Source: Patescibacteria group bacterium (GTDB lineage Bacteria > Patescibacteriota > Minisyncoccia > Phycocordibacterales > UBA1006). Taken from it: DNA of 64,000 bases. The stretch's first letter is position 1. Each line of letters begins with the position of its first letter. Below, in pieces: positions 863 through 51,521 of the stretch. The stretch lies in the NCBI GenBank assembly GCA_028286885.1, contig JAQBQS010000016.1:2809-66808 (forward strand), read 5' to 3'. The notes below the pieces were generated by a model that did not search any database, was not told the DNA's origin, and saw nothing but the letters and a program-made list of their open reading frames with translations. The translations under genes were made by a program, and so were the position numbers.

Positions 863-933
863 GCGGTGCTAGTTTAGTGGTAGAATAACTGCCTTCCAAG
901 CAGTGGATCAGGGTTCGATTCCCTGGCGCCGCA
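863..933 (+). tRNA. tRNA-Gly (anticodon TCC)
   Basis: Cloverleaf: acceptor GCGGTGC/GCGCCGC (one GU), anticodon stem CTGC/GCAG with loop CTTCCAA, T-arm CAGGG-TTCGATT-CCCTG, discriminator A; no encoded CCA. Confidence 0.85.
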
Positions 934-2599
934 CAGTAAGAGATTTCTCGTCTAGTTTTTCTTCATTTATCTTGAAAATGAAGGTCAGTTTTGGTGTTCG
1001 ACTAACTATTTCTTCGTATGTCGGAAACTCTTCGAAGAAGAGGCTATAAAGTGTGATCTGTTCTCGCTTATTCTCAATGTTTTCAAGTATTTTTGTAGGG
1101 TGTTCCATTAAATCTTTTGTATTTTTTATAAATTCGTGAATTTGGTCTTCGTTGATATCGAGCTTGTTTCTTTCGTTTTGTGCCCGACTCAGTTCAATAT
1201 GGATACTCTCATACTCCTTTTCGAGGTCGGCTTTTACGATTGGAGAATTTGCAGCTTCAATTGCTCTAAGTTTCAACTGTTTTTGTTCTTTTATTTCGAG
1301 AATGCGCTTGCTTATAAAGTTTGATTTGTCAGCAACAGTACCTTCTTCTCGGCGATATTTATAAACTAAAGCCCTCTCAATTATCGAGATAAATTCATCA
1401 GTAAACTTAATAGTTGCAAGGAAATTATTGAAAGTATCCTCGGCTTCCTTTCGAGGAAAGGCATATCTTTCGTGTTTTCTAGAACAATGATACGCAGGAT
1501 ATTTGTTTCCTAATTTTCCTGTCGAAAAACTTCCCAAAAGTGGTTTGCCACAGAGCGGGCATTTTAAGATATTTTTAAAAGGGAAGTCGGGTCGGAAATC
1601 ATGTCTTTTGTCCAAGAATTTTTCAAGCTTTTGGTCATAAAGAATTTCAAACCTATTTTCTCCAAGAGAATTTATGTAGACCTTGCCACGATTGGCTTTA
1701 TTAAAAATATCCATTGAAACAATCCCATTCCATTTTCCTTTAATAGGAAGGTAGTTTGTCCATTTTTCACAAACTATTCCGCAGTAAATTGGTCTTGTTA
1801 TTATTCTTTGGAGAGTTTTAACTGTAAGTCCGAGCGATTCCGTCTTTCCTGTAATTTTTGTTTTTGAATTATTCCATTTCTTGCGAACTTTTGATTTAAA
1901 TCCCATTGCGTTTATCTTCGAAACAATTTCCTCATCAGAGTAAATACCCTCCGCACGAAGTCTAAACATTTCAGAATAGTATTTACTTCTCTCGGGATCA
2001 GGTTCAAGAATGTATCGTTTCTTCATATCAACGTCCACCTTTTTTGAAACATATCCGTCGTTGGCTGGTCCCATATGATAACCGTCCCTCACCAAAAGAA
2101 TTTGTGCCTCGATAAGCTGTCGAAGGATTCTCTTTCGATCCATTTCCGATCGTTTGACTTCCATTAGCTCGCTCGCCTCGCTTGGGCTTTCTGTAGACCA
2201 CTCATACTTTAAATTATATTTATCAAAGTGGTTTTTTTCTGCCTGAATGATACCAGTAACATCTCGTAATTCAGTTCCGTGTTTTAGTAGTTCCGATTTG
2301 ATCTCGTAATAATTGTCTACTTTTCCGCGTGTCATTCGACTGATTATGCGAATAATAAGGAACTTAACTTTCCCGGGATTGTCCTTTAAAATTTGGATTA
2401 TTTCGTTGTAAACAGGGCGTGATTTTGTTTTTCCGCTAAAAGGCTCCTCGAATACTTTGTTATCAGGGAATAGTGTATATCCGTTGCGGTCGCAGTAATT
2501 TCTTATATCTTGCTCCTGTCCTGCAAGACTATCGCCGCCGACTGCTTGTTTTGCAGTGCTTACGCGCGCATATCCAATTACATAAATTGGCTCATTCAT
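908..2599 (-). CDS. large serine recombinase (integrase); its 3' end overlaps the tRNA-Gly 3' end by 26 nt
   Basis: N-terminal resolvase catalytic motif YARVSTAKQ, recombinase domain, Cys-rich zinc-ribbon CPLCGKPL...YHCSRKH, C-terminal coiled-coil; 563 aa. Confidence 0.85.
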   Translation of the reverse strand: MNEPIYVIGYARVSTAKQAVGGDSLAGQEQDIRNYCDRNGYTLFPDNKVFEEPFSGKTKSRPVYNEIIQILKDNPGKVKFLIIRIISRMTRGKVDNYYEIKSELLKHGTELRDVTGIIQAEKNHFDKYNLKYEWSTESPSEASELMEVKRSEMDRKRILRQLIEAQILLVRDGYHMGPANDGYVSKKVDVDMKKRYILEPDPERSKYYSEMFRLRAEGIYSDEEIVSKINAMGFKSKVRKKWNNSKTKITGKTESLGLTVKTLQRIITRPIYCGIVCEKWTNYLPIKGKWNGIVSMDIFNKANRGKVYINSLGENRFEILYDQKLEKFLDKRHDFRPDFPFKNILKCPLCGKPLLGSFSTGKLGNKYPAYHCSRKHERYAFPRKEAEDTFNNFLATIKFTDEFISIIERALVYKYRREEGTVADKSNFISKRILEIKEQKQLKLRAIEAANSPIVKADLEKEYESIHIELSRAQNERNKLDINEDQIHEFIKNTKDLMEHPTKILENIENKREQITLYSLFFEEFPTYEEIVSRTPKLTFIFKINEEKLDEKSLTVRRQGIEP

Positions 2600-2808
2600 A
2601 AATCTATTTTAACATTATCCGTTTGTTTTGACTCATTTTCAAACCAAATTTTATAAGCTGTATTAACAAATATCATAGAAGCTTCATAAATTTTTTGTAC
2701 CTGAAAATCTGAGAACTTTTTCAGCTCCTCATGAGTAAGTACATTCTTTTTGAATTCTTCCAAGCTCATTATTTTGAGATTAAAATCGAGATAACAAAAA
2801 CGCCCCAA
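2596..2808 (-). CDS. small hypothetical protein, translationally coupled upstream of the recombinase (possible directionality factor)
   Basis: 70-aa ORF overlapping the recombinase start by 4 nt (ATGA); no recognizable motif. Confidence 0.3.
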   Translation of the reverse strand: MGRFCYLDFNLKIMSLEEFKKNVLTHEELKKFSDFQVQKIYEASMIFVNTAYKIWFENESKQTDNVKIDL

Positions 2809-3210
2809 TATAAGGGCTTTTTGTAAGCAAATTACCTGTTCGTAGAAATACGTAGAATTGGTAATTAACTAGGCAAAAAGCCTAACGAATTACCAACTCG
2901 ACGCATTTATTTATCCTGAAGTAAACATATCGTAACTTGTAGATTCATCGGAGATCTCTAGTGTTTTTTAGCCACTTTCTAACTTTTTCTAACCTCCAAA
3001 TGAAACAGGATGAGACATAATCAGGGTAAAATGCAATGTTGATCCGTTTTCTCGATATGATCGCTCCCTGCAATAGTTTTTCGAGAAAACTTTATTAAAT
3101 TATCTGGGGCAATGAACTGACTGACTTTATTATAGCAGTTGTTTTGAAAAAATCACCTCCTAGACATTACAGGATTAAAATAGTACGCTTTCTAACATAA
3201 CCTAATAAAA

Positions 3211-3358
3211 GTAGCCTAAACTCGTCTAACGGCGAGCATGGTGAAAGCAATGTCCAGTCAGACATAAAAAACCCATCATATGGGGTTTGTCTGACTGGCT
3301 GCATTTGGAAACGAATGCAGAGGGCGAAAGTCCTCAACCTATGTGGTGGGCTTTTTGT
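3211..3358 (+). ncRNA. conserved structured RNA motif, copy A (unidentified family)
   Basis: ~88% identical to 23134-23279. Stems CCAGTCAGACA/TGTCTGACTGG and TGCATT/AATGCA are replaced in copy B by CCAGTAAAGAT/ATCTTTACTGG and GTATC/GATAC (compensatory). Invariant hairpin CCCATCATATGGG, GGGC-GAAA-G(t/c)(c/t)C tetraloop hairpin, ends GGGCTTTTTG. Confidence 0.6.
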
Positions 3359-3389
3359 ATCTCATTTATTAGAACAGTCAGACTAATTT

Positions 3390-3728
3390 ATGAAATTTAA
3401 TCCTTTTAAGATAATTTTAAGTGTCGCCAGTCTTATTTTAGCTGGAAGTGTGTTTTATTACTTTATTATTTATTTGCCCTCTGAAAAGCAGATGGAACAT
3501 TTTCGAACCGAACAGGGGAATAGTTTGAGAAACTCGGCATTAAATCATTGTTTTCAGGATGTTCAGTCTGAATATCAAGATGATATGACGAAAAACTGTT
3601 TCCAAGAAGGTTTTGATGATTGCTCCCTGAATCCACATGTTGCAGGAAATATGATAGTTGTTTTGAATAATAAATTACAAGCAGATAAGCAAATTTGTAT
3701 TAAAGAGTACGGGACATGGAATCCATAA
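3390..3728 (+). CDS. small membrane-anchored Cys-containing hypothetical protein
   Basis: N-terminal TM helix ILSVASLILAGSVFYYFIIYL; 112 aa; lies immediately downstream of RNA motif copy A. Confidence 0.4.
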   Translation: MKFNPFKIILSVASLILAGSVFYYFIIYLPSEKQMEHFRTEQGNSLRNSALNHCFQDVQSEYQDDMTKNCFQEGFDDCSLNPHVAGNMIVVLNNKLQADKQICIKEYGTWNP

Positions 3729-3732
3729 TAAA

Positions 3733-3778
3733 AACAGCTTAAAACCCCTAATTTAGGGGTTTTAAGCTGTTTTTATTT
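3733..3778. terminator. rho-independent terminator
   Basis: aaaaacAGCTTAAAACCCCTAAtttaGGGGTTTTAAGCTgttttt perfect hairpin with U-tract. Confidence 0.6.
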
Positions 3779-3871
3779 ACTATTTAGAGTGCCCGTATTG
3801 CCTAACTTTTTCTTACCTTGAAACCTTTTTATTTCGCACTTTTTCGTACCAACATTTTTAATTTAAAGTGC

Positions 3872-4165
3872 CTAACTGGCAACATTAAACTTGATATTTC
3901 TTGTTTTTTCCAAAATATCCAAAGTAGCTTTTACAGAAGAATTAGAAGTATTTTTTAAGATTAGCCTATCGCCGTATTTACTGACCAATGGGCTTAAAAA
4001 TTCATCTCCCCATGATGGAGCGAATGTTAAAATTCCAGAAAAATCCAAAATAAGCTCTTCTGAATCAGAAAAGTTTTTTAATTCAGGTTCAAATGCTGTA
4101 AAAGCTTCTCTTCCTCGATCCCGAAATACCGATGTGTTTCCAAATTTAACTAATTGAATTTCCAT
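3872..4165 (-). CDS. STAS-like (DUF4325-type) small protein
   Basis: 97 aa; ...FSGILTFAPSWGDEFLSPLVSKYG...; resembles STAS-like partners encoded next to GHKL ATPases (by recollection of family features). Confidence 0.4.
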   Translation of the reverse strand: MEIQLVKFGNTSVFRDRGREAFTAFEPELKNFSDSEELILDFSGILTFAPSWGDEFLSPLVSKYGDRLILKNTSNSSVKATLDILEKTRNIKFNVAS

Positions 4166-4183
4166 AATGTTTATTATACTAAG

Positions 4184-4915
4184 CTAATATTTAATATAAG
4201 CAACACAGCCGCGTAACCAACGAACGGCAGGCCTAATATCTAAATTTGAAGAGTCATGTTTAATTTCCAGTTCTGCGTTACCACTTTGAAATCTAAGTCC
4301 GATTAGATTATTTGTTACGACAGTCCTTACAAATTTTAATCCGTTCCCACGAGACTCCTGAGTCCTTCCAGAAACAACCTCGGTAAATGCTGTATTTATA
4401 GCACTACCATCATCTATCAGGTCTGGGAGGGCTTGCCTTAATGTTGTTAAGATCCCTAAGCCTCGGTCAGCGAGCACAACCTCTCTTTTGTCTGTGTCGT
4501 ATGCAAAAAATATGCCTGCTTCGTCTGGCCAGCGACCTAAGTTATGATCGAAAGAGTTTCCTCCAATTTCTCCAGAAACCGATACCACCAAAGAAAATAT
4601 ATCTTCGAGGAGAGGTGATTTCAGAAGCTCTTCTTGAAACTTGCCAAGCTTGGTCTGAAAAACTGCACTATTCTCAGCATATGCATATCTAGGGATGTGC
4701 GGTATTTCTTTTGAGTCAGCAGTTGCCCATTCAAAAGCTGTTTGAAAAAGATTGTTTGGAAAGAACTCCAGATCAATCTTTCTGTAAAATCTATCCCCGC
4801 CAGGTGATTTCCTAACGGCTCGCAATTTTCCACTCTCGTCCCAACGCCTTAGCGTTGTTATTGAGACATTTAAAATTTTTGCTGCCTCCCCTACTGGTAA
4901 TAGTTCATTCTCCAT
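4184..4915 (-). CDS. HTH (MerR/excisionase-type) fused to GHKL-family ATPase (RsbW/SpoIIAB-like kinase fold)
   Basis: N-term LPVGEAAKILNVSITTLRRWDESGKL (HTH_17-like); GHKL N-box GEIGGNSFDH, G1 box DRGLGI, G2 box SRGNGLKF. Confidence 0.5.
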   Translation of the reverse strand: MENELLPVGEAAKILNVSITTLRRWDESGKLRAVRKSPGGDRFYRKIDLEFFPNNLFQTAFEWATADSKEIPHIPRYAYAENSAVFQTKLGKFQEELLKSPLLEDIFSLVVSVSGEIGGNSFDHNLGRWPDEAGIFFAYDTDKREVVLADRGLGILTTLRQALPDLIDDGSAINTAFTEVVSGRTQESRGNGLKFVRTVVTNNLIGLRFQSGNAELEIKHDSSNLDIRPAVRWLRGCVAYIKY

Positions 4916-5078
4916 AATTTAAGGTTATATTTTGAATTATACACTAATTTAGGCAAAAACTTGTGTAATACCTACTCATAATATATGCTAAATCTACTCA
5001 TTGCAACAAACATTGATTTTATACCTTTAATCCCTATAAATTGCAATCTGATTAATAGCTTATAATCAAAACATATTT

Positions 5079-5366
5079 ATGGCAGTAAGAATTACTTGTA
5101 TTAACAAAGATAATGGAAATCATTTAAATCCTCATGCAGGGATAACGCACTTCGGATGGGTAAATGAACAAACCAGGGCTACTGGTAAAAGCACGAAAGC
5201 TGTTATGGTTGATTTTTTGACTAAACAAGGAGGGAAGGCATATGTAAAAGATGCTAGAGGGAATATCGCTTATGTTGGCGTTATTACGAATCATATTCCT
5301 CCATATCTTAGAACCTACGCGGATGGTAAGTGGTCGGATAATTTGCTCAGTTTGGGCGAATGTTAA
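5079..5366 (+). CDS. small conserved hypothetical protein (DUF3892-like)
   Basis: MAVRITCINKDNGNHLNPHAGITHFGWVNE...; 95 aa; family assignment by recollection, low certainty. Confidence 0.3.
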   Translation: MAVRITCINKDNGNHLNPHAGITHFGWVNEQTRATGKSTKAVMVDFLTKQGGKAYVKDARGNIAYVGVITNHIPPYLRTYADGKWSDNLLSLGEC

Positions 5367-5369
5367 TTT

Positions 5370-6104
5370 ATGAAGTTGGTTTTTATTGATGAGACAGATC
5401 GGCAGGCAAGTTCCACAGTCCACGCATTCTTTTCGATTTGTGGGTTGGTTATTGATGAGTCTGAAATTATGGCAACGACAAACGAACTTGAAGAAATTAA
5501 GAAAAAATACAATTTTTCGAATCTAAAGGAATCTAGAAAAAGCGGTCTTTCCGAACAGGAAAAAGTTATTATTTCTACAGAAGTATTTGATTGCCTCAAA
5601 AAACATAACGCATCAATTATTTCAATCGTCTTGGGAGATTTTTCCATGAGCTTTAACATGCCCAAAGATGACCTTTACATGGGAGCAATACAATTCTTGA
5701 TGGAGCGTTTCTGTCTTATTTTAATGAAAGTAAATAGTTGTGGTTTGGCAATATTTGATTGTACAGAAAAGAGATTTGAGAAAAAGCTTAGAGAAAAATT
5801 TTACGAATATATTCAGACTCAAACCGTTCATATGGCTTGGGAGTCAAAACCAAGAGGTCCCATGAGAGATTTCATTCAACCAACTTTATTTTTTGCAGAT
5901 GATGAGCAAAGCATTCTTATTCAAGCGGTTGATCTTATTGCTGTTTCTTTAAACAGTGCGATCGTTAATATTACGCAAAGCAACCCAAAAATCATGGTTG
6001 CAGATCTTCCTTCTGGTAATAAGTTTCTAAACATATACTGGCCACTTTTTGCTTCAAGTTCTTCAGGTAAAGTCGAGGGGTGGGGTGTAAAAGTTTGGGA
6101 TTAA
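5370..6104 (+). CDS. DUF3800-like protein (predicted RNase H-like fold)
   Basis: N-terminal MKLVFIDETD... matches the hydrophobic-DESG start typical of DUF3800; 4-nt intergenic gap to the preceding gene suggests an operon. Confidence 0.4.
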   Translation: MKLVFIDETDRQASSTVHAFFSICGLVIDESEIMATTNELEEIKKKYNFSNLKESRKSGLSEQEKVIISTEVFDCLKKHNASIISIVLGDFSMSFNMPKDDLYMGAIQFLMERFCLILMKVNSCGLAIFDCTEKRFEKKLREKFYEYIQTQTVHMAWESKPRGPMRDFIQPTLFFADDEQSILIQAVDLIAVSLNSAIVNITQSNPKIMVADLPSGNKFLNIYWPLFASSSSGKVEGWGVKVWD

Positions 6105-17842: not shown

Positions 17843-18391
17843 AAATTACAAATGAATAAACATCTAAAAGCAGCATTTCAACTTTTTGTGCTCTTAGCCG
17901 CTGCGACATGGGTTATTACAATACTCATTGGGGCATATGTGGACCTGTTAAACACCATCAAAGCTGTCTTTCTTATCGCCCTTTCTCGATTCCTCATCCC
18001 GTACGTTGTGGCAATTGCGTTAATAATATTTTCTAAATGGATTTCGGAGAAGAATCAAGAAAAAATTTATACTGTTGCAACAACGCCGGTGATCGTGGTG
18101 CTGATAACCGCTTATCAGCGGGATCTATTTCGGAATCGCATCGGGCATAGCCTTTGCGCTCTCGTTATTTTTTCTCTACGGCATTCCGTATTGCAAAAAG
18201 ATATTTCAGAAAACATAATCGCACATCAAAACGCACCTCGTCAGGTGCGTTTTTTATTTTACCTATTTCAATCCTTCCAAGTATTCAAATGCTTTTGCGT
18301 TCGTCAGAATCTGCGTGACATAGGCGCGTACGCGTTCTTCGGAAACATCCTGCGCGTCCTTGTACATCTCGAGAATCTTCGCAGTCTCTGA
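17843..18391 (+). CDS. possible small membrane protein; 3' part likely not translated (overlaps tig and a terminator)
   Basis: N-terminal hydrophobic helices; the ORF runs through the bidirectional terminator at 18228-18258 and into tig on the opposite strand. Confidence 0.2.
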   Translation, partial: KLQMNKHLKAAFQLFVLLAAATWVITILIGAYVDLLNTIKAVFLIALSRFLIPYVVAIALIIFSKWISEKNQEKIYTVATTPVIVVLITAYQRDLFRNRIGHSLCALVIFSLRHSVLQKDISENIIAHQNAPRQVRFLFYLFQSFQVFKCFCVRQNLRDIGAYAFFGNILRVLVHLENLRSL

Positions 18392-19321
18392 CTGGATTTC
18401 TTCCTGATTAGGTTCAAGCTTCTCGTCTTCTGCAACCTTGTCCAAGATGAGCTGCATCTTCGCGCGCTTCTCGGCGTTGATGCGCCATTCGGCTTTCAAT
18501 GCATCTTCTGTCTTCTCGATTCGTTTCAAGTAATCGTCCATCGTCATGCCCGTCATCGAAATGTCGTAGGCGAACTGCGACATCATCTTGTCGAGTTCGA
18601 TGTCGACCAGGAGATCAGGCAAGTCAATCGAAGCTCCTTCGATAATTCCGTCGATCATGGTAATTCGTTTCTTCTCGTTTTCCTGGCGCGTTTTTTCCTT
18701 CGCCAAGTTTTCGCGAAGCTTCGTCTTGAAATCTTCGACTGATTCGAATGCTCCGAGCGTTTTTACAAACTCATCGTCGAGCGCAGGAAGATCTTTTTCT
18801 TCGATGTTCGCATGGTTGTGATCCGTGTGGTCATGTCCGTGCTCGTGCATCAAATGATGCGCGCGCATCTGGCGGAGTTCCTTGATCGAGCCGTCCACCT
18901 CGTCGTCGGTTACCTCGACTGAAATGGTTTCCTTGTTTGTCGACTTGGCAATTTTTTTGTAATCGCCCAAATCGATTTTCGGAACGACAGCCGTGATCAC
19001 GGAAAATTCCAAGTCGTTGCCCTTGGCAATTTTCTTGATATGGATTTCTGGTCGGCCGATTGCCTCGATCTTATTATCAATAATGACCGTTGGATATGCG
19101 TCGGAAATGGCGAGTTCCGCCATTTGTTCAAGGATGCCCATTTCGCCGACGTGTTTTTCGATCATGTTTGCGGGAACCTTGCCTTCGCGGAATCCGTCGA
19201 TTTTGACGCGGCGGCCGATCGCGGCGATGGCGCGGTCGCGGTAGCTCTCGAATTTTTCAGCAGGAACAGTTCCGCTGATCTCGATGCGGGAACGATCCAA
19301 TGGTTTGATTTCGGGTTTCAT
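18263..19321 (-). CDS. tig: trigger factor
   Basis: MKPEIKPLDRSRIEISGTVPAEKFESYRDRAIAAIGRRVKIDGFREGKVP... N-terminal ribosome-binding and PPIase-like middle domain organization; 352 aa. Confidence 0.8.
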   Translation of the reverse strand: MKPEIKPLDRSRIEISGTVPAEKFESYRDRAIAAIGRRVKIDGFREGKVPANMIEKHVGEMGILEQMAELAISDAYPTVIIDNKIEAIGRPEIHIKKIAKGNDLEFSVITAVVPKIDLGDYKKIAKSTNKETISVEVTDDEVDGSIKELRQMRAHHLMHEHGHDHTDHNHANIEEKDLPALDDEFVKTLGAFESVEDFKTKLRENLAKEKTRQENEKKRITMIDGIIEGASIDLPDLLVDIELDKMMSQFAYDISMTGMTMDDYLKRIEKTEDALKAEWRINAEKRAKMQLILDKVAEDEKLEPNQEEIQSETAKILEMYKDAQDVSEERVRAYVTQILTNAKAFEYLEGLK

Positions 19322-20965: not shown

Positions 20966-21040
20966 TCCCCTGTAGCTCAGCGGTAGAGCAATCGACTGTT
21001 AATCGATTGGTCGTAGGTTCGATCCCTACCGGGGGAGCCA
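20966..21040 (+). tRNA. tRNA-Asn (anticodon GTT), CCA encoded
   Basis: Acceptor TCCCCTG/CGGGGGA, D-arm GCTC-AGCGGTA-GAGC, anticodon stem ATCGA/TCGAT with loop CTGTTAA, T-arm GTAGG-TTCGATC-CCTAC, discriminator G, CCA. Confidence 0.85.
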
Positions 21041-21304
21041 GTTAGGGGTACTAGCAAGTTCTAGTACCAAGTTCCAAGGTTCTCGCATTGTAAACTCTAG
21101 GTTTTTTCCATCTACAAGCGGGTTCTGAATGAGATAATTCACAAAAGCTCTTTTTTCATGTGTATCAGAACTTTCAAAAAGTTCAGTTGCATCATGAGCA
21201 AGATTAAGTATTACGCCTACAGTGATTTTGTAAGTGTGATCTGCTTTTGTGTGCTCATCAAGTTCGATAGAAAGTCGCGCCTGTCGGTCTTTAAGCTGTT
21301 GCAA
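21026..21304 (-). pseudogene. C-terminal remnant of a large serine recombinase, overlapping the tRNA-Asn 3' end
   Basis: 92-aa ORF; ...DTHEKRAFVNYLIQNPLVDGKNLEFTMREP... parallels the C-terminal ...NKREQITLYSLFFEEFPTYEEIVSRTPKLTFIFKINE of the intact recombinase at 908-2599; no catalytic domain upstream; same 3' overlap geometry with a tRNA. Confidence 0.5.
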
Positions 21305-21389
21305 CTTTTTGTCATAGTCGTCAGGGGTAATTCGCCACTCCGATCATATTTCAGCCCGTACCGCTTAAAAGGCTCGTTATTGTGCTACA

Positions 21390-21953
21390 TTGATGAATAT
21401 GCAAGAAGATAAAAGGATCGCTACAATGGAAGCTCTGTATGAGAATTCAAAGAGCTTAATAACATCCGCCGACTCTCTTATAGAGTCAAAAATGCCCGTT
21501 GGGCATGCTTTTGCGCTACTTCAAACAGCTTGTGAGGAAATCGGAAGAATGTTGGCAATTTTACAAATCCTTCAGAGTGTTAAAGTTGAGCTTCCAAGGA
21601 ATAGGCATACTGTTAAGCACTCCCATTTTCTTAGATTTATGTCGATTCAGCCTGTAGGGCATCGACCTTACTTTGAGATCATTTCCGAGATTACTGGCTT
21701 TGAAATCAATCAAGAGAACTCAAAGGACGATGTTGTTCTTGATAAAATTCAGAAGTTTAGAGAGTCTTGCTTATATGTAAACGTTAATTTCGATAACAAT
21801 CATACGATTTCATCCCCAACTGAAGAGAGAATACAAGGTAAGGTTGAGCAGGTAAAGGAGCTAAAAGAAATTCTTGTAAATTATATGAATGGCATGCTTA
21901 AACCACTTATAGAAGCTCACAAAAACGGGAAGACGATATTCTCTAAATCTTAA
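21390..21953 (+). CDS. HEPN-like / AbiV-like protein
   Basis: 187 aa, predicted all-alpha; Rx4H motif (RHTVKH) within LPRNRHTVKH; size and composition resemble AbiV-type HEPN proteins (by recollection). Confidence 0.4.
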   Translation: MMNMQEDKRIATMEALYENSKSLITSADSLIESKMPVGHAFALLQTACEEIGRMLAILQILQSVKVELPRNRHTVKHSHFLRFMSIQPVGHRPYFEIISEITGFEINQENSKDDVVLDKIQKFRESCLYVNVNFDNNHTISSPTEERIQGKVEQVKELKEILVNYMNGMLKPLIEAHKNGKTIFSKS

Positions 21954-21959
21954 GGTCTT

Positions 21960-22925
21960 ATGGAAAATCTAAAATCTAAAAAACAAATACTTTTAACAGG
22001 GGCTGGCTTTTCAAAAAATTTCGGAGGCTTTTTAGCCAAGGAAATGTTCGATGAGATCTATAACAGCGACCATCTTAAAAAGTTTCCAACATTAAGAGAT
22101 AAGCTTCTTGCCACAGGTGATTTTGAGTTTTTTTATGCGGAAGCAATGCTCGATAAAAACCTAACTCCCGAAGAAAAAGGTGCTGTTAAAGCTGCAGTGC
22201 AAGAAGCTTACAATAACCTGGATAAAATCTTTCAGAGCTCTTTTATATCCAATGGTGATTTGCTAATGAGCTGGGGTGATTTTCTAAGTAAAAACTTTTC
22301 TGGTAATGGGTCGGCTGTAGGGTTATTTTTTACTCTCAATCAGGATTTGTTGCTGGAAAGAAGTTTTGGGAATGTTTGCCCTGGAGTCAAGTCATTTAGA
22401 ATGAACGGGCTTGGACAAGCAGATTCATTTTCTTCCTCTCATTCGGTAGTTCTACCACAAGACACTAAAAGGGCAGAGGCAGACATTTTAGTGGGTAACC
22501 TTTCCTATTTTAAGTTACATGGTTCCTATGGGTGGAAATCTTCTGACGGTACAGATCAGATGGTTGTAGGAAGTAATAAGTCAGAGCTGATTGAAAAGGA
22601 GCCGATCCTGAAGCTTTATTTCGATGTTTTTAAGAAGGCTATCGCCGAGGGAAACAAAAATATTTTAATAATAGGGTATGGGTTCAGGGACAAGCATATC
22701 AACGATGTCTTGATGGACGGGGTTGAAAACCATGGATTAAAAATAGTTTGTATAGGTAACTCATCAATAGCTGATGTTATTAAAAAAGCGGAAAATGAAT
22801 ACCCAGAATGCGTACCTTTACTAAGAAGGGTTGATAAGTACTTCCCTTACCCTTTAGAAAGAATCTTAAATAATAATGCAGGAGACACAAGCTTTCGAGA
22901 TAGGATCGAGGAAAATATTCGATAA
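21960..22925 (+). CDS. SIR2-like (defense-type sirtuin) NAD-binding domain protein
   Basis: N-terminal KQILLTGAGFSKNFGG (GAGxS NAD-binding loop) and FTLNQDLLLE (TTNYD-like motif of SIR2_2/ThsA-type domains); 321 aa. Confidence 0.55.
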   Translation: MENLKSKKQILLTGAGFSKNFGGFLAKEMFDEIYNSDHLKKFPTLRDKLLATGDFEFFYAEAMLDKNLTPEEKGAVKAAVQEAYNNLDKIFQSSFISNGDLLMSWGDFLSKNFSGNGSAVGLFFTLNQDLLLERSFGNVCPGVKSFRMNGLGQADSFSSSHSVVLPQDTKRAEADILVGNLSYFKLHGSYGWKSSDGTDQMVVGSNKSELIEKEPILKLYFDVFKKAIAEGNKNILIIGYGFRDKHINDVLMDGVENHGLKIVCIGNSSIADVIKKAENEYPECVPLLRRVDKYFPYPLERILNNNAGDTSFRDRIEENIR

Positions 22926-23036: not shown

Positions 23037-23133
23037 AGTATTGACGATTTATCGAATATATTGTAATGAAAAATCACCATATTAATATGGTGATTTTTCA
23101 TTTATGTGCTATAAGATAAATACAACTAAATCA

Positions 23134-23279
23134 GTAGCCTAAACTCTTGAGTGATCGAGAGCATGGTGAAATAAACCCAGTAAAGATTAAAAAACCCATC
23201 ATATGGGGCTATCTTTACTGGTCGTATCTGGAAACGGATACGGAGGGCGAAAGCTCTCACCTATGTGGTGGGCTTTTTG
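23134..23279 (+). ncRNA. conserved structured RNA motif, copy B
   Basis: See copy A (3211-3358); compensatory stem substitutions; ends GGGCTTTTTG. Confidence 0.6.
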
Positions 23280-23423
23280 CTTGAATTATTAGTTTTATAT
23301 TTCGACTATATCTTCTAAGAGAAATTATTTTTTGAGCTAAGCCTATAACTTCTCTTTAGAAATAATTTAACTCGCTTTGATAAGGTAATTTACCTATAAA
23401 AAGCCTTCAGTAAATGCATTTTC

Positions 23424-24425
23424 ATGGAAAAAAATAACAAAAAGAGTTCGTTAGGAAAAATTGTTGCGATTATGTTCTTTAGCGGATTTGTTCTTCTGAT
23501 TGGGTGTCTTGTCTTAGGATTCAAATATGTATGCCGGCACGAGGCATGCTCGATTTCTTCCCAGAAGCCCTATGTGGTTTCCATAAAAACTGAGGAAGGG
23601 AAAGGTGTGCATGTTGAAAATAAAGGATCTATTTTCTCGATTTTTTACAAAGTCCAGAATGGAAACGGACCCGCTGAAGATTTTTTTAACGTTGATACAA
23701 GTAAGTTTGCAATTCAGGACTTGTCAGTCGATTTGGAGAGCCCCTTTTTTAGTTGTTCTCAGCGAAGAGAGAAGAAGATTATATATGTCATTTTAGATGT
23801 TTCGAAATCGGTTGTTCAATCGGCAGGCGAGGACTATTTCAGCAGAGTTACTTCTACCATACAAAATATTTTAGCCTCGGACAGTCTTGAGCCTGGCGAT
23901 CAAATTCGAATTAGATTTATGGGAAATAATAATGACGCGCTTGATAATCTTGATTTTACCGGACCTCGTTTCAAATATTCAGTTCAAAAGAATTCAGTTC
24001 AAAAGAAAATAACTCTTACTCTTACGGATTACTCGCGTGATCATTTAACGAAATGTCAAAATACATCAGGCGCGATTTCTCTAGAAGATGTTATTGGTCA
24101 TATTCAAAGTTCATATGAGAAACGCATCCAAACTCCGGATAATACGACGAATATTTCCGGTTTGTTGAAACAGATATCAAATGAAGTTTCTTTGGAACAG
24201 GAGCGATTTGAATCGGTTCGATACATCATCTTTACGGACGGTGACTCTACTGACGAATACGACGGATGCGATTACTTGTCCGCAGATAAATGCGGAACTG
24301 ACATCAAAAGTCTCAACTTGAATCATGACCTTTCAAATCGCGCGTATGTCATCTGGGTCAAGGATTCGTGGACACAAGGAGTGTTTAGAAAACTATTCGA
24401 CGGCATGTCCGTTAATTTCCAATAG
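23424..24425 (+). CDS. membrane-anchored vWA (von Willebrand factor A) domain protein
   Basis: N-terminal TM helix; MIDAS DxSxS = ILDVSKS; downstream IIFTDGDSTDE typical vWA motif; 333 aa. Confidence 0.5.
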   Translation: MEKNNKKSSLGKIVAIMFFSGFVLLIGCLVLGFKYVCRHEACSISSQKPYVVSIKTEEGKGVHVENKGSIFSIFYKVQNGNGPAEDFFNVDTSKFAIQDLSVDLESPFFSCSQRREKKIIYVILDVSKSVVQSAGEDYFSRVTSTIQNILASDSLEPGDQIRIRFMGNNNDALDNLDFTGPRFKYSVQKNSVQKKITLTLTDYSRDHLTKCQNTSGAISLEDVIGHIQSSYEKRIQTPDNTTNISGLLKQISNEVSLEQERFESVRYIIFTDGDSTDEYDGCDYLSADKCGTDIKSLNLNHDLSNRAYVIWVKDSWTQGVFRKLFDGMSVNFQ

Positions 24426-43471: not shown

Positions 43472-44794
43472 ATGAAGACAAAAGTCCTCGTTATTGGTGC
43501 CGACGGGCGCGCAGACGCGCTGGCACGCCAAGCAAGCCTTGGAATCCATTTTTCACATCTGTACGCATTGCCCGGCAATCCGGGAACCAAGCGATGGGCG
43601 ACAACCATCAGCGGTTCGATAACTGATTTCGTAGCCATCGAAAAGGAATGCCTCAAGCACGGCATCACGACGATCGTAGTCGGTCCGGAAGATCCGCTTG
43701 TAAAAGGCATCTCGGAGTATTTTGCAGCCAGCCAATCGTCTGCCCATATCAAAATCGTGGGACCATCTGCCAAGAATGCAAAGATCGAAGGCAGCAAGGC
43801 GCATGCGAAACAATTTATGGATCGCCACGGCATACCGACAGCGCCTTTCCAGATTTTCAAGGAAGACCAGCTGGAACTGGCCAAGCTGTACATCGAACAG
43901 CTGACTGTATTTCCTACTGTCATCAAGGCCGACGGCCTGGCTGCAGGAAAGGGAGTCCTCATCTGTCATACGCCCGAAGAAGCGCTTGCGGCAGTAGAAG
44001 GCATGCTCTCCGGTGCCAAGTTCGGCGATGCGGGAAAGACGATCGTCGTCGAGGAATTCCTTCCGGGAAAAGAAAGCTCGTTCATCGTCATCACTGACGG
44101 AACGGGCGCGTGGAAACTTCTGCCTTTGGCACGCGATTACAAACGCGCGGGCGTTGGCGACACAGGTCTCAACACAGGCGGCATGGGTGTCATCTCGACG
44201 CCGTCTCTCGTGACGGAATCATTCAAGCAGATTGTCACTGAACGCGTCATCGAGCCTACGATCCAAGGATTTATCGCCGATGGAACTCCCTACAAAGGAT
44301 TCCTTTACATTCAGCTCATGGAAGTAGAGGGACAACCGTTTGTTGTCGAGTACAACTGCCGCCTGGGAGATCCTGAAACGGAAGGCATCCTGCCTCTGAT
44401 CAAGAGCGACTTCAGCGAACTTCTCGCGGCGTGCGCAAACGGAACTCTCAAGTATACGAACCTGGAATTCCATGAAGAATGTTCGGCTGTGATCGCGATT
44501 GTTTCAGGAGGCTATCCCGGGGACTTCGAGAAAGACAAGAAGATCATGATTAATAAGTATGCGATCGGCCGCATCGGATGCAACATTTTCTTCGCAGGCG
44601 CGAAAGAGGAACATGGCGAACTTGTTACAAGCGGCGGCAGGGTTCTGTATCTGCAGGCCAATGCCCCTACTCTCAAGGAAGCGTTGAACCGCTGCTATGA
44701 AGCTGCCAAGCATGTCTTCTTCGACAATATGTACTTCCGTACCGACATCGGCGCCGAGGTGCTTGCGCTTGAAGCGATCGGACAGGAAGCATAA
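43472..44794 (+). CDS. purD: phosphoribosylamine--glycine ligase
   Basis: MKTKVLVIGADGRADALA... ATP-grasp PurD architecture; 440 aa. Confidence 0.85.
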   Translation: MKTKVLVIGADGRADALARQASLGIHFSHLYALPGNPGTKRWATTISGSITDFVAIEKECLKHGITTIVVGPEDPLVKGISEYFAASQSSAHIKIVGPSAKNAKIEGSKAHAKQFMDRHGIPTAPFQIFKEDQLELAKLYIEQLTVFPTVIKADGLAAGKGVLICHTPEEALAAVEGMLSGAKFGDAGKTIVVEEFLPGKESSFIVITDGTGAWKLLPLARDYKRAGVGDTGLNTGGMGVISTPSLVTESFKQIVTERVIEPTIQGFIADGTPYKGFLYIQLMEVEGQPFVVEYNCRLGDPETEGILPLIKSDFSELLAACANGTLKYTNLEFHEECSAVIAIVSGGYPGDFEKDKKIMINKYAIGRIGCNIFFAGAKEEHGELVTSGGRVLYLQANAPTLKEALNRCYEAAKHVFFDNMYFRTDIGAEVLALEAIGQEA

Positions 44795-44894
44795 TGAGCA
44801 TCTTCGAATCCGCCTTAACCGGTGGATTTTTTAATGGCATTATCCGACCTCATGGCATTTTACCCCCGCTCCTTTTCGTGATAGCATCAATGGT

Positions 44895-47501
44895 ATGAAT
44901 CTCAATCCTAAAAACTGGTTCGAACTCCAGCAGAAGCGCAAGGCGGTGCGGGCGGACTTGGCCAAGGAAACCGGCATGCGATCCTCCGAGGCTCTCGACA
45001 AAAGCGCGGAAGCCGACGGCATGAACGACCTTCTCGGTGCAATTGCGAGCGGAAACCTCGCGAATGTTTCGCTCGACACCGGAGCCGTCGACGGCGTCGC
45101 AAAATCGGAATATGTCAGGCATCTGCAGGAAACGCTGCGGCAATTGAACGAGGAAGCCGAGAAGTTCGGCCCGGTGACCGAAGAGTCGGTCGAAACCTAC
45201 CGCCAGCAGTCAGGCGAGCATTACGCCTATAAGAAAGTGAACCAGGAACTGCTGAAGCTCGACACTCTGCGCGAGGAGACGGACCGCGCGATTTTCGAAA
45301 TTTTGAAAAACGGCAAGGGCGAAGGCTTTACGCGCATGGACGAAGCGAAGCTCGCCGAGTACGAGAAGATCAAGGGCGCGATCACGAACCGGACGGCGTC
45401 GCTCGAACAGAATCCGGAAACGGCGCTGTTCGTGCGCATGCACACGCTCGACTCGTACCACGATCAGCTCGTCAAGGAAAACTACATCGAGACGCCGTCG
45501 CGAACGGAATACATCGACTGGATCAAGGACCAGATGAAGAACCACCGCGCGGTGCTTCTTGAAGGCGCGACGGGAACCGGAAAAACGGAGCTTCTGATCC
45601 ATACGTCAAAGTCGCTTCTCGGCAAGAACAATCCCGAGATATTGGCCGGAAATCCGCACGTTACGAAATACGATCTCTTGGGAAGCCAGGGATTGGAATC
45701 CGACGAGCATGGAACGAAAACCGTCGACAAGCCTGGATGCCTGCCGCGAGCGATGAAGGACGGCAACCTGCTGATCCTCGACGAGATGAACCAGATCGAA
45801 ACCAAGGTCCGATTCGCGCTCAAGCCGTTTTACCGCTACTCGGGAGTCCGCGGCGGCGAGGTTTCCGTCGAAGGCGTGAACTATCCGGTCAACGACGGAT
45901 TCCTGATCGCGGCTACCGCGAACCTCAAGAGCGAAAAGCACAAGGACCGCTTCGACCTGGACGCGGCCGAGTCGCGCGTATTCGCGATGAAGCGCATCGA
46001 GTACCCTCCGCAAAACGAGCTGTACGACATGGCGCTCGCGGCGCTCCGCAGGAACGACGGAACGTACCTCGTCTCCGAAGGTTCGGCGAAATCGACGCTG
46101 AAGTATCTGGTGGACGCGGCGCGCGACATTCAGGAAGGCTACGAGAAAGCGCTGTCCGCGGGATTTGACCCGTCATCCGGAAAGAAGACGTCGCTTGAAA
46201 AAGCGGTGCTCGATCCCGGCGAATTCATGGCAATGGTCAAGTCGTACACGGCATCCTACGCGTCCGGAAAAACATTCGAGGACCACATCGACGCGCGATT
46301 GGCCGATTTCGTCGCCAAAGGATCGTACCCGGAAAAAGACCGCGTGCTTCTCGCGAAAATTCTGACGTCGAAGGGATTCCTCTTGAAAAACTTTGATCCC
46401 GAAATGCTCCATTTGACGGACGACACGCTGCGAGATTCCCTTGCCCAGTGGCCGATGCCGGCGCAAGACACCCTTGTCCGCGAGCGCGGCACGATGACGG
46501 AACGCGAAGCGGCGATGCTCGATCCGTACGAACTGCGCAAGGAAATGATCGCGAAAACGACCGACAGCTTCGTCGGTATGATTCCCGAGGAAGAAAAGCA
46601 GATGATCCTCAACGCGGCGGAGCGCGGCATCAATTATCTCGAAGCCAAGGAAGCGATCGGGAAAGAAAATTTCCTCGGTCCCGACGAGATCAAGTTCCGA
46701 TTCTCGATCGACGTCAAGAACGCTCCGAAGGTTCCGTTTTCAAAACAGGAACTCATGGACGCGAAAAAGCTCGGCCAGCAGCTGGTTCTGTACGTCGACA
46801 AGACGAAAGACGGCAAGCCCCTGACGATTTCCGCCATGCGCGAGCAGACGAAAAACAAGACGAGCCAGGCAACCGGACTCTTCGCGGACGGCGACGATTA
46901 TTTCAAGAACAACGGGCTTGATCAGGAAACGCCGCGCGTCGGCTGGCGCCTGACTTCCAAGGAGTGCCTGCCGAATTCGGAAAACAAGAACTATTTCGGA
47001 CAGACGCAGGTTGCCGTCGATTACTTGAAAAACGAAGTCTTCAAGGGAACTAAAATTCCCAAGGAATACGCCGAAGCGTTCGACGAATGGGAAGCGGTCA
47101 AGAAAACGAATCTCAAGGAGCAGTCCGAATCGGGCGACAGCGCGAAATGGATGGCCGCGTCGCAGCAGCTCGCGAATCTCAAGATTACGCAGCTGACCCG
47201 CGAGCGATTGTCCGAAGTCATGTACCGCCTCGCGATTCAGGAATCGAAAAACAAAGAGCGTTTGCTCGATTCCGCGGGCCGCACGGTCTACTATACGTGG
47301 ACGAGCTCCCGTGGTTCCGATGGCGACTTGGCTCTCGCCGGCCGCTTCGATTCCGACGGCGTGGATGTGTGCGCGGGTGGGAGCCGAGGGATTCCGGCTC
47401 GCGCATCGGGGTTTGTCTCTCTCGCAGTTGAATTTAGGATATCAGGAATTTTTGAATCATGCGGAACAAACCGCCCGGATAGGGCGGTTTGTGGCGAATG
47501 A
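44895..47501 (+). CDS. AAA+ ATPase (AAA_5/MoxR-like) with long C-terminal extension ending in a DGR variable region; VR is frameshifted as assembled
   Basis: Walker A GATGTGKT, Walker B LLILDEMN; C-terminal ...YYTWTSSRGSDGDLALAGRFDSDGVDV... overlaps VR; in the TR-matching frame the protein would end ...IGVCLSRS* at 47431. Confidence 0.6.
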   Translation: MNLNPKNWFELQQKRKAVRADLAKETGMRSSEALDKSAEADGMNDLLGAIASGNLANVSLDTGAVDGVAKSEYVRHLQETLRQLNEEAEKFGPVTEESVETYRQQSGEHYAYKKVNQELLKLDTLREETDRAIFEILKNGKGEGFTRMDEAKLAEYEKIKGAITNRTASLEQNPETALFVRMHTLDSYHDQLVKENYIETPSRTEYIDWIKDQMKNHRAVLLEGATGTGKTELLIHTSKSLLGKNNPEILAGNPHVTKYDLLGSQGLESDEHGTKTVDKPGCLPRAMKDGNLLILDEMNQIETKVRFALKPFYRYSGVRGGEVSVEGVNYPVNDGFLIAATANLKSEKHKDRFDLDAAESRVFAMKRIEYPPQNELYDMALAALRRNDGTYLVSEGSAKSTLKYLVDAARDIQEGYEKALSAGFDPSSGKKTSLEKAVLDPGEFMAMVKSYTASYASGKTFEDHIDARLADFVAKGSYPEKDRVLLAKILTSKGFLLKNFDPEMLHLTDDTLRDSLAQWPMPAQDTLVRERGTMTEREAAMLDPYELRKEMIAKTTDSFVGMIPEEEKQMILNAAERGINYLEAKEAIGKENFLGPDEIKFRFSIDVKNAPKVPFSKQELMDAKKLGQQLVLYVDKTKDGKPLTISAMREQTKNKTSQATGLFADGDDYFKNNGLDQETPRVGWRLTSKECLPNSENKNYFGQTQVAVDYLKNEVFKGTKIPKEYAEAFDEWEAVKKTNLKEQSESGDSAKWMAASQQLANLKITQLTRERLSEVMYRLAIQESKNKERLLDSAGRTVYYTWTSSRGSDGDLALAGRFDSDGVDVCAGGSRGIPARASGFVSLAVEFRISGIFESCGTNRPDRAVCGE
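47304..47428 (+). repeat. DGR variable repeat (VR)
   Basis: 125 nt matching TR 47696-47818; all 16 substitutions fall at TR adenines, plus a 2-nt length difference (VR TGCGCG vs TR AACA). Confidence 0.85.
47469..47497 (+). other. GC hairpin downstream of VR (DGR homing-associated stem-loop)
   Basis: ACAAACCGCCC-ggata-GGGCGGTTTGT about 40 nt after the VR 3' end, position typical of the hairpin/cruciform that enhances DGR retrohoming. Confidence 0.5.
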
Positions 47502-47695
47502 AAGTGTGCTAGAATGATCCGCACCGGGAATGCGAAGGCATCAATGATGCCTTTCCCCGAAACATACATTACTGCTTGCCTTCCTCTTCGCGCGAGTATT
47601 TCGACAGCCGCGGCGCGCGCGAAAAAATGACATCCTCGACCTTCTTATGATAATTAAGAACGAAGAAGAACTGACCCGGACGGGGGAAGGCAACA

Positions 47696-47818
47696 AGCTC
47701 CCGTGATTCCGATGGCAACTTGGCTCTCGCCGGCAACTTCGATTCCGACGGCGTGAATGTGAACAGGTGGAAGCCGAGGAATTCCGACTCGAACATCGGG
47801 GTTTGTCTCTCTCGAAGT
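47696..47818 (+). repeat. DGR template repeat (TR)
   Basis: Adenine-rich counterpart of VR, with AAC codons at the variable positions; shared 3' IMH-like end CATCGGGGTTTGTCTCTCTCG. Confidence 0.85.
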
Positions 47819-47837
47819 GATAACATGTCAAACGAAA

Positions 47838-47880
47838 ACGGAGCGGGCCCTTCAGGGCCGCGCTCCGTTTTCACTCTCTA
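47838..47880. terminator. GC hairpin with flanking A- and T-runs just 3' of TR and 3' of avd
   Basis: aaaacGGAGCGGGCCCttcaGGGCCgCGCTCCgtttt. Confidence 0.5.
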
Positions 47881-48184
47881 TTTTTTTAATCCAACCGCCG
47901 ATGATTTTTCCAAGTTCCGCCAAGTGTTCCGAGAGGATCACATGCGCCCGGTCGGGAAGGCATTTCGCGTCGTTTGCGATGCGCAGCCGAAGCTGGATGC
48001 TTTTGAGTTCGACGTCGATTTTATTAACCAGCAACAACTGGCTTGCACCCTTCTTGGACCGCGCGAGCATTCCCATCTCGAGCGCTTCGAAGGCCTTGGG
48101 GATGATCGGAAGTCCGAGGGCGTACCGGTCGAATTTTGGCATTTTGCCTACATACATATGCAACGCGACAATGAACTTGCACAT
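47852..48184 (-). CDS. avd: DGR accessory variability determinant (Avd)-like four-helix-bundle protein
   Basis: 110 aa: MCKFIVALHMYVGKMPKFDRYALGLP...HVILSEHLAELGKIIGGWIKKIESE; resembles bAvd (…SIPRKHG… and …LIAEVGRILGSWIARV…); it is the 3' end of the long antisense ORF 47852-50584. Confidence 0.5.
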   Translation of the reverse strand: MCKFIVALHMYVGKMPKFDRYALGLPIIPKAFEALEMGMLARSKKGASQLLLVNKIDVELKSIQLRLRIANDAKCLPDRAHVILSEHLAELGKIIGGWIKKIESENGARP

Positions 48185-48216
48185 TTTGGCCGCGAAAGCG
48201 CTCGACGCCAAAATTC

Positions 48217-48230
48217 GGGGGGGGGGGGGG
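48217..48230. repeat. homopolymeric G14 tract between divergent avd and RT starts
   Basis: aaattcGGGGGGGGGGGGGGtgattcag. Confidence 0.8.
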
Positions 48231-49279: not shown

Positions 49280-49291
49280 TAGTCTTGGCAC

Positions 49292-51319: not shown

Positions 51320-51521
51320 TTTCTTGGGTAAGGGATGCGGATAAAATAAGCAAGAATAAAAGCCTTTCGATTGGATCGAAAGGCTTTTTTGTTGAGGCTC
51401 TGCTTCCTCGAGGCTCACCGTTTAGTATTTATTTGTCAAGTACTCTTGATTAAGCCTTTAATTGCAAAGGAATGCTCCCCATGGTACTGTTTGCAAAATC
51501 ATTCACTCTTAAAACAACATA

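Follow-up and report, generated by a model that had tools for sequence, protein, structure and literature searches.

Two copies of a structured RNA lie on the forward strand of a 64,000-nt stretch of DNA from a Patescibacteria group bacterium (GCA_028286885.1, contig JAQBQS010000016.1, positions 2,809 to 66,808; hereafter the window, in whose numbering all positions are given). Both are members of the already catalogued LOOT family, Rfam RF03000. Comparison with further copies of the family revealed a strongly covarying long-range helix, here called T, that closes the RNA at a U-run and is absent from the Rfam model, and an open reading frame (ORF), most often coding for a small membrane protein, that follows LOOT on the same strand. 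We put the chances at about even that LOOT acts in cis, as an attenuator in the leader of cargo genes carried by prophages. The evidence for this reading, and the explanations that compete with it, are laid out below.

Two members of the LOOT family

The element is about 146 nt long and occurs on the + strand at 3211-3358 (copy A) and 23134-23279 (copy B). We scanned the whole window with Rfam 15, in which the RF03000 model has 121 positions and a gathering score of 46.4. Both copies exceeded that score and matched the model over its full length (1-121/121); besides LOOT, only two tRNAs were matched at the gathering threshold.

3213..3335, + strand: LOOT copy A, part covered by the Rfam model (P1-P5); RF03000, 81.3 bits, E = 1e-13, model positions 1-121
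23136..23258, + strand: LOOT copy B, part covered by the Rfam model; RF03000, 92.6 bits, E = 2e-16, model positions 1-121

A sequence-only reading of this DNA had held that the element matches no known family. It had proposed an Rfam scan and named a match there as a finding that would refute it, so the claim of novelty fails. Its description of the copies fared better. Both are real, located on the + strand and folded well beyond chance; the stretches that it called invariant are present in both, and each copy is closed by CUUUUUG, the U-tract that it had noted. The global identity of the copies is 78% (119/152 columns over the coordinates above), lower than the roughly 88% it had given.

The hallmarks of the family are found in both copies: stems P1 to P5, a GAAA loop on P4 and another on P5, and the motif pair CCUAAAC / GCAUGG. 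At the level of membership the window copies do not differ from LOOT in any of these. The stems are as follows, with a and a' denoting the 5' and 3' strands of the outer P3 stem.

3214-16/3240-42, + strand: P1 of copy A, fully paired
3221-26/3231-36, + strand: P2 of copy A, fully paired
3254-64/3288-98, + strand: P3 of copy A, outer stem a/a', 11/11 paired; encloses the A-rich segment L1 and the apex
3300-07/3312-19, + strand: P4 of copy A, fully paired
3320-25/3330-35, + strand: P5 of copy A, fully paired
23177-87/23211-21, + strand: P3 of copy B, fully paired
23223-30/23235-42, + strand: P4 of copy B, fully paired
23243-48/23253-58, + strand: P5 of copy B, fully paired

The compensatory changes reported earlier proved genuine. 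Between the two copies we counted eight double changes that keep pairing, five in P3 and three in P4, and none that disrupt it, together with two wobble changes in P5. P2 differs in length between the copies and remains paired in both. The + strand folded to -63.2 (A) and -58.1 (B) kcal/mol (z = -6.6 and -7.0; 0/200 shuffles equal), the - strand to just -47.5 (A) and -44.7 (B) kcal/mol. As many G.U pairs function on the + strand only, the structure is kept at the level of RNA and the element is not a DNA repeat, as the earlier reading had concluded. One further pairing from the minimum-free-energy fold, between 5' AGCCU and 3' GGGCU, was rejected: many copies have GAGC there, and the 5' end is invariant.

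The internal loop between P1 and P2 resembles a known tertiary-contact motif.

3214..3242, + strand: P1/P2 with the internal loop CCUAAAC...GCAUGG, similar to the 11-nt GAAA tetraloop receptor (read from the sequence)

In its wild-type form the 11-nt receptor reads CCUAAG_UAUGG; variants that still function, CCUAAC_CAUGG among them, have been described (bioRxiv 10.1101/2024.03.11.584472). LOOT is similar in that CCUAAA(C)...(G)CAUGG flanks P2 and two GAAA loops are available; it differs in that A.C replaces the G.U position. A GAAA tetraloop probably docks into the receptor-like CCUAAA/CAUGG loop and thereby compacts the RNA.

Sampling of the family and its hosts

LOOT originates from the 224-motif survey of Weinberg and Breaker (NAR 2017; PMC5737381). 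Rfam took it over from ZWD, listing it as a 'metagenomic-based' RNA (PMC7779021). Its other mentions concern covariation statistics only (PMC7657543, PMC11701678). Rfam types RF03000 as 'Gene; sRNA' (small RNA). No functional study of LOOT was found in the literature searched.

Further copies were collected with the strict pattern GCCTAAAC N10-22 GCATGG N50-80 GAAA N14 GAAA, which returned 110 genome loci. An independent check of pairing in P2, P4 and P5 was passed by 68 copies, including both window copies, and 67 of these are non-identical. A metagenome scan added 86 non-identical copies, which served as a replication set and brought the total to 153. Since a single pattern retrieved every copy, its fixed motifs are invariant by construction. 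All 18 loci tested were confirmed as LOOT by Rfam (55-97 bits), with one copy per 8 kb. Across the 67 copies the outer stem of P3 measures 9-14 bp.

To our knowledge, LOOT had been known solely from marine metagenomes and unclassified organisms. The validated copies lie in metagenome-assembled genomes (MAGs) of several named groups and do not fit that range. Judged by MAG labels, Patescibacteria make up the great majority of hosts (among them Saccharibacteria, Paceibacteria, Nomurabacteria, Vogelbacteria and Moraniibacteriota); some LOOT-bearing MAGs are labelled Gammaproteobacteria, Bdellovibrionales, Omnitrophota or Bacteroidetes. The window itself belongs to Patescibacteria: its RNase Y matches, at 100% identity, a protein in NCBI from a 'Patescibacteria group bacterium' MAG. 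Its contig is also present in a Logan assembly of SRR13312974. The strict pattern had two matches in IMG/VR, both of which failed the helix check, and blastn of LOOT against 50,697 GenBank phages found none. The prophage context described below therefore rests on neighbouring genes and not on known phages.

From P3 through the tail, copy B (23175-23279) is 100% identical to positions 1330-1434 of a locus in MAG ELA064 (L049). RNase Y is 78% identical between ELA064 and the window, and P2 and the downstream gene differ. This identity suggests a recent transfer or modular recombination of LOOT.

A long-range helix that ends in a U-run

The 20-24 nt that follow P5 are conserved. Together with the apical part of P3, with which they covary, they form helix T, 13-20 bp in length.

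3265..3284, + strand: 5' strand of helix T in copy A, consisting of L1 UAAAAA (3265-3270) and the apex CCCAUCAUAUGGG (3272-3284); pairs with 3338-3350 and 3352-3357
3338..3357, + strand: 3' tail of copy A, consisting of CCUAUGUGGUGGG (3338-3350), C, and UUUUUG (3352-3357); 13/13 and 6/6 paired
23260..23279, + strand: 3' tail of copy B (CCUAUGUGGUGGG, C, UUUUUG); pairs with 23188-23207

We assessed T on a MAFFT alignment of the 67 copies, built without structural fitting. Its 8-bp core was 99.1% paired, and six of the eight pairs had changed on both sides; single positions carried, for example, AU 33 / CG 15 / GC 13 or AU 39 / GC 27. The 3' extension of the helix was 87-95% paired, and the 5' extension, in which the A-rich L1 faces the U-tract, 90.3%, with one position showing AU 40, CG 12 and GU 8. 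The core occurred in 30 distinct variants, 28 of which were fully paired. For the structure as a whole pairing reached 90%, against 70% in shuffled alignments (0/500 reached the observed value) and 37-46% in slid controls. An alignment-free comparison gave the same picture: duplexes between the P3 interior and the tail had energies of -24.7 kcal/mol when both came from the same copy and -14.3 kcal/mol when they were mismatched, and the replication set returned -24.6 and -14.1 kcal/mol. The inner P3 hairpin of the Rfam model was only 70% and 42% paired on the same alignment. Helix T explains those nucleotides better, and the hairpin may be a folding intermediate.

Both copies show a stem followed by a U-run, namely 13 bp with a 6-bp A:U extension and then CUUUUUG, and this arrangement is conserved in the 67 copies. 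The A-run and U-run that flank T are in the style of the ordinary terminators of the window (A-run, stem, U-run). In copy B, a local hairpin in the tail was also flagged as terminator-like. The stem of T is not local, as its loop holds a', P4 and P5. Since the U-run follows T directly, helix T, judged from sequence and covariation, looks like an intrinsic terminator with a split, long-range stem, the 5' half of which lies within the loop of P3.

LOOT leads co-oriented genes

In all 62 copies with enough flanking sequence, an ORF of at least 45 amino acids lies downstream of LOOT. The downstream gene was co-oriented in 58/61 copies, the three exceptions being artefacts of the ORF caller; the upstream gene was co-oriented in 24/64. 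ORF starts fall mostly 40-70 nt past P5, about 35 nt past the U-run, and approximately 90% are ATG. The replication set behaved alike, with a co-oriented downstream ORF in 74/74 copies, a median start at +56 nt and 88% ATG. Such tight spacing leaves no room for a separate promoter between LOOT and the ORF. LOOT is thus a structured element in the 5' leader of co-oriented genes in 62/62 and 74/74 copies.

A -10-like hexamer stands upstream of LOOT in 52/67 copies, often with an ACAAC motif 5-7 nt later; in most copies this motif, ACAAC(U), sits 8-25 nt ahead of GCCUAAAC.

3176..3181, + strand: -10-like TAAAAT, putative promoter of the copy A unit
23112..23127, + strand: -10-like TAAGAT (23112-23117) and ACAACU (23122-23127), putative promoter elements upstream of copy B
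3729..3775, + strand: hairpin and U-run terminator that closes the LOOT-ORF unit of copy A; 20-bp stem, from the terminator scan

A scan of the window for consensus -35/-10 sequences called no promoter upstream of copy A or copy B. The upstream motif, ACAAC(U)NAAUA in full, is not part of the Rfam model and probably marks the transcription start; none of the other parts compared with it proved complementary. Copy B begins directly after the hairpin and U-run that end a SIR2 gene. This layout suggests that a LOOT unit has its own promoter and that its transcript extends past the Rfam model. Translation of a leader peptide from the invariant AUG within GCAUGG was considered and rejected, as inspection showed frames and stops to be inconsistent between copies. 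The strength of Shine-Dalgarno sequences did not differ between LOOT-led and other genes.

The proteins encoded behind LOOT share a property of their N-termini. An N-terminal hydrophobic segment was present in 89/136 LOOT-led proteins (65%) and in 83/508 other ORFs of the same loci (16%), an odds ratio of 9.7 (p = 1e-27). The observation that both window copies precede genes for N-terminally anchored proteins, already made by the earlier reading, thus extends to the family.

3390..3728, + strand: ORF led by copy A, 112 amino acids, N-terminal hydrophobic segment; no Pfam or PHROG family
23424..24425, + strand: ORF led by copy B, 333 amino acids, N-terminal hydrophobic segment; starts 144 nt past the U-run

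The latter had been called a vWA gene, an assignment we could not support: the ORF has no Pfam match at E<=0.01. Pfam matches among LOOT-led proteins are in general sparse and heterogeneous, comprising SNase, DUF6804, DUF4352, SHOCT, zinc ribbons, DNA methylase, trypsin-like peptidase, T5orf172 and one Imm_superinfect. No common pathway was found among the LOOT-led genes, and the hydrophobic segment is the sole property they share.

These results bear on the Rfam classification. LOOT might be a free-standing, trans-acting sRNA, with T and the U-run as its terminator and the downstream gene expressed incidentally or independently. Its type in Rfam agrees with this, a stem and U-run end every copy, and in 80% of copies no complementarity links LOOT to the gene behind it. 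The complete co-orientation and the close starts without promoter room in 62 and 74 copies speak against it, however, as do the lack of orientation bias among upstream genes and the enrichment of hydrophobic N-termini downstream; no trans target is known. We consider a trans-acting role unlikely, and our data suggest that the label 'sRNA' should be reconsidered in favour of a cis-acting leader.

Two folds that may compete

Helix T and the outer stem of P3 would compete for space. On geometric grounds, the full 19-20 bp of T should exclude a closed outer P3 of 11 bp, as no nucleotides would be left to link the two helices. A T core of 8-13 bp and a closed P3 could coexist as an H-type pseudoknot. 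Under constrained folding, the 67 copies averaged -54.5 kcal/mol in state I (closed P3, free tail) and -53.6 kcal/mol in state II (open P3, T formed). With a difference of 0.9 +/- 3.5 kcal/mol, the two states are near-isoenergetic. For the window copies, the energies of state I and state II were -54.5 and -51.9 kcal/mol (copy A) and -51.2 and -54.1 kcal/mol (copy B).

The alternative to two exchanging states is a static, compact, pseudoknotted 5' untranslated region in which P3 and the T core are present together, and which stabilizes the transcript or sets a fixed level of partial termination irrespective of any signal. P3 and the T core would be compatible in such a pseudoknot, with the A-rich L1 as a linker of 6-7 nt; the tetraloop and receptor elements suggest a single rigid fold, and the cargo genes have no common pathway. 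Against it stand the 90% pairing of L1 with the U-run, which belongs to the full 19-20 bp helix that is incompatible with a closed outer P3, and the near-equal energies of the two states over 67 sequences. The repeat of the P3 strand at the start region, described in the next section, makes sense only if a' is sometimes unpaired. We regard a static leader as unlikely too, and place it behind the trans-acting RNA.

Possible pairing with the start region of the cargo gene

In copy A, a second copy of the 5' strand of P3 lies just ahead of the cargo gene.

3375..3383, + strand: a-copy CAGUCAGAC, repeat of the P3 5' strand; 6 nt ahead of the ATG at 3390 and complementary to the P3 3' strand

This repeat makes the start region complementary to a'. 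The duplex of a' with the start region of copy A has an energy of -16.3 kcal/mol, compared with -11.3 kcal/mol for the 1% quantile of mismatched pairs. Pairing beyond that quantile was seen in 11/61, 10/74 and 19/93 copies, that is, in about 20%, and in about 20% of copies the a-copy ends 1-6 nt ahead of the ATG. The control, in which the P3 5' strand was compared with the start region, gave no signal. Copy B has just a 7-nt match to the P3 5' strand (CAGUAAA, 23408-23414), which is not significant.

Other segments showed less. No complementarity was detected between the 5' leader, P4 or P5 and the spacer or start region, nor between the 5' leader and the tail. Complementarity of tail and spacer was weakly significant and confounded by composition and by a 4-nt overlap. 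In five loci (L017, L023, L007, L047 and L081) the U-run and the bases after it (e.g. CUUUUUGCGU) are complementary to the segment before the start codon (ACGCAAAAG), and in three others (L036, L043 and L108) the complement of the pre-ATG segment is the P5 3' strand together with the tail. The statistics for these pairings, possible alternative expression platforms, are weak.

The order a, a', a-copy recalls the antisense RNAs c4 of phages P1 and P7 and CI of P4. These prophage-encoded RNAs are transcribed from the same promoter as their target, and target-like repeats lie on both sides of the antisense segment, the downstream repeat overlapping the ribosome-binding region. LOOT shares with them the prophage setting, the putative single transcript and, in a minority of copies, the target-like repeats that flank an antisense strand. 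An RNA of this 'same-transcript' kind, processed from the leader so that a' blocks the downstream ribosome-binding region, would fit the integrase-adjacent prophage context as well as the order of repeats in about 20% of copies. There is, however, no similarity to c4 or CI in sequence or model, and no Rfam C4 match in the window at the gathering threshold. The antisense segment of LOOT is paired inside the 11-bp P3 stem and does not lie in a loop, 80% of copies have no target, and the downstream genes are of other kinds, membrane or accessory and not antirepressor or replication genes. We therefore judge this explanation improbable.

Genomic niche of the LOOT units

We clustered the ORFs neighbouring LOOT all-against-all. 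One family dominated, a large serine recombinase found at 32/67 copies at a distance of 0.1-4.7 kb, almost always upstream of LOOT and divergent from it. In the replication set it was present in 17/31 copies with at least 2.5 kb of upstream sequence. The window holds an example beside copy A.

908..2599, - strand: large serine recombinase, divergent from copy A; Pfam Resolvase, Recombinase and Zn_ribbon_recom; phrog_95 integrase, E = 1e-42
863-934: tRNA-Gly, overlapped by the 3' end of the recombinase gene (908..2599)
20966..22925, + strand: context of copy B, with tRNA-Asn (20966-21040), an AbiV-type HEPN gene (21390-21953) and a SIR2-like gene (21960-22925)

Overlap of the recombinase 3' end with the 3' end of a tRNA or transfer-messenger RNA (tmRNA) gene is seen in the window and in at least 17 other loci: with tRNA genes in L005, L006, L013, L021, L022, L024, L042, L064, L090, L095, L096, L097, L102, L105 and L109, and with tmRNA in L070 and L076. 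L109 has two recombinase-tRNA pairs, back to back. The pattern points to a widespread class of serine-integrase elements in Patescibacteria that integrate at tRNA or tmRNA genes. Recurrent neighbours further include the terminase large subunit (phrog_38, E = 9e-78), the terminase small subunit, primase/polymerase and DNA methylases. With integrase, terminase and primase genes as neighbours, LOOT units belong to integrative elements or prophages, where, in the manner of 'morons', they are typically placed between the integrase and the remaining phage genes.

Both window copies are in tRNA-associated islands, in line with the earlier reading, and both islands are low in GC. The island of copy A (about 934-6100) holds DUF4325, MerR/excisionase-like and DUF3800 genes, with DUF3892 and DUF3800 genes at 5079-6104. 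None of the DUF3800-associated RNA motifs, several of which are in Rfam, occurs in the window at the gathering threshold. No intact recombinase is present in the island of copy B. The AbiV-type HEPN gene lies directly before the SIR2-like gene (21390-22925), between tRNA-Asn and copy B, and the two are likely an anti-phage defence pair. A 92-residue ORF (21026-21304, - strand) overlaps the 3' end of tRNA-Asn; it is 53% identical to an ORF at 5913-6221 of L108, a Saccharibacteria LOOT locus, where it also stands beside tRNA-Asn. It was considered as a C-terminal remnant of a recombinase and rejected, its similarity to intact recombinases not being significant (E = 0.22). Repeats of at least 12 nt from the tRNA-Gly or tRNA-Asn region were not found elsewhere in the window.

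On the opposite strand, 0.3-2.8 kb upstream of LOOT, nine loci (L006, L011, L015, L027, L034, L064, L066, L093 and L105) encode a protein family of 81-106 amino acids that has no Pfam or PHROG match and is a candidate element-encoded regulator.

This setting would also suit an element acting at the DNA level, such as a miniature inverted-repeat transposable element (MITE), an attachment (att) site or an RNA that guides the serine recombinase next to it: the island of each of the two copies is tRNA-associated and has, or once had, a recombinase close to LOOT, and the identity of copy B to L049 of a different MAG from P3 to the tail suggests mobility. Both the DNA-level and the recombinase-guide ideas are very improbable, essentially excluded, by many conserved G.U pairs (UG 55 and UG 59 in T) that would read as A.C mismatches in the opposite strand, by the much poorer folding of the - strand, by helix sequences that vary freely with pairing kept, by the fixed orientation to the next gene, by the lack of visible terminal inverted repeats or target duplications, and by longest exact matches between LOOT and tRNA/att that average 6.9 nt, compared with 7.4 nt for mismatched pairs.

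Two features of the window lie apart from LOOT. GC content is 0.51-0.56 at 44000-54000, about 0.45-0.49 in the other backbone and 0.36-0.39 in the two islands. A trigger factor homologue (18263-19321, - strand, 352 amino acids) matches only Trigger_N and Trigger_C in Pfam, with no peptidyl-prolyl isomerase (FKBP) domain reported.

Discussion

Beyond the 121 positions of the Rfam model, LOOT extends in the 3' direction by the tail and helix T and in the 5' direction to a putative transcription start. Beyond the Rfam entry, it has an obligate co-oriented downstream gene, a prophage and recombinase context, and Patescibacteria as hosts. The attenuator reading starts from what was observed, namely the family identity, the co-orientation and spacing, helix T, the start-region complementarity and the genomic context; termination, read-through, switching and its trigger we infer from these.

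As an attenuator, LOOT would work as follows. The LOOT unit would be of the 'moron' type, with its own promoter, LOOT, a cargo gene and a terminator, and would be carried, in Patescibacteria, by integrative elements or prophages whose large serine recombinase inserts them at tRNA or tmRNA genes. With P3 closed, probably held so by tetraloop docking, T could form only in part, so that transcription would continue and the start region would be free. With P3 open, the full T would form and transcription would terminate at the U-run, releasing an RNA of about 150 nt that would resemble an sRNA. At about 20% of loci, copy A included, the freed a' could in addition pair with the start region of the cargo gene and set up a translational off-state. 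Candidate triggers are a ligand, Mg2+-dependent tertiary folding or an element-encoded protein. The most specific form of the proposal, in which LOOT is a signal-responsive riboregulator of a new riboswitch-like or factor-dependent attenuator class, with a split terminator, half of it locked in a hairpin loop, that gates surface and membrane 'lysogenic conversion' genes of temperate phages and integrative elements in the candidate phyla radiation (CPR), is one we advance tentatively and think doubtful as it stands.

Several points weigh against the attenuator. All 153 copies come from one strict pattern, and divergent LOOTs lie outside the sample; ORFs were called heuristically. The covariation between L1 and the U-run rests on few independent lineages, and nearest-neighbour energies take no account of pseudoknots or tertiary contacts. 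A static pseudoknot of closed P3, an 8-13 bp T core and the L1 linker is sterically possible and needs no switching. Start-region complementarity is absent from 80% of copies, copy B included, and since the ORF of copy B begins 144 nt past the U-run, it could have its own promoter. The heterogeneity of the cargo sets LOOT apart from classical riboswitch regulons, and a ligand pocket is not apparent.

Among known regulators, the fluoride and ZTP classes are transcription-attenuating riboswitches in which a pseudoknot competes with the terminator. They share with LOOT a structured 5' leader and a long-range or pseudoknot helix beside a U-run; like them, LOOT would have two folds that exclude each other, and add-on platforms that vary between copies and would cover the start region. 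LOOT differs in that the long-range helix is itself the putative terminator stem, with no separate competing hairpin; no conserved pocket was identified, and its genes share a protein class (membrane or secreted) and not a pathway. Phage morons are independent promoter-gene-terminator units in prophages. LOOT units resemble them in being autonomous, in lying between the integrase and phage genes, often on the opposite strand, and in having a terminator behind; part of the cargo, such as the superinfection-immunity domain, nucleases and methylases, is moron-like as well. A conserved structured leader RNA common to hundreds of unrelated cargo genes is not known from morons.

The rediscovery of a catalogued orphan RNA family is ordinary on its own. 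Here the family gains a host range, mainly Patescibacteria, a niche in cargo units beside serine integrases of tRNA- and tmRNA-integrating elements, a structure extended by a strongly covarying helix missing from its Rfam model, and a testable model of action. If the model is true, the split-terminator switch would be an unusual attenuator design, and LOOT would offer a handle on how prophages control membrane-protein genes in uncultured, host-dependent bacteria. If LOOT also responds to a signal, the mobile elements of Patescibacteria would have their first defined mechanism of regulation by RNA.

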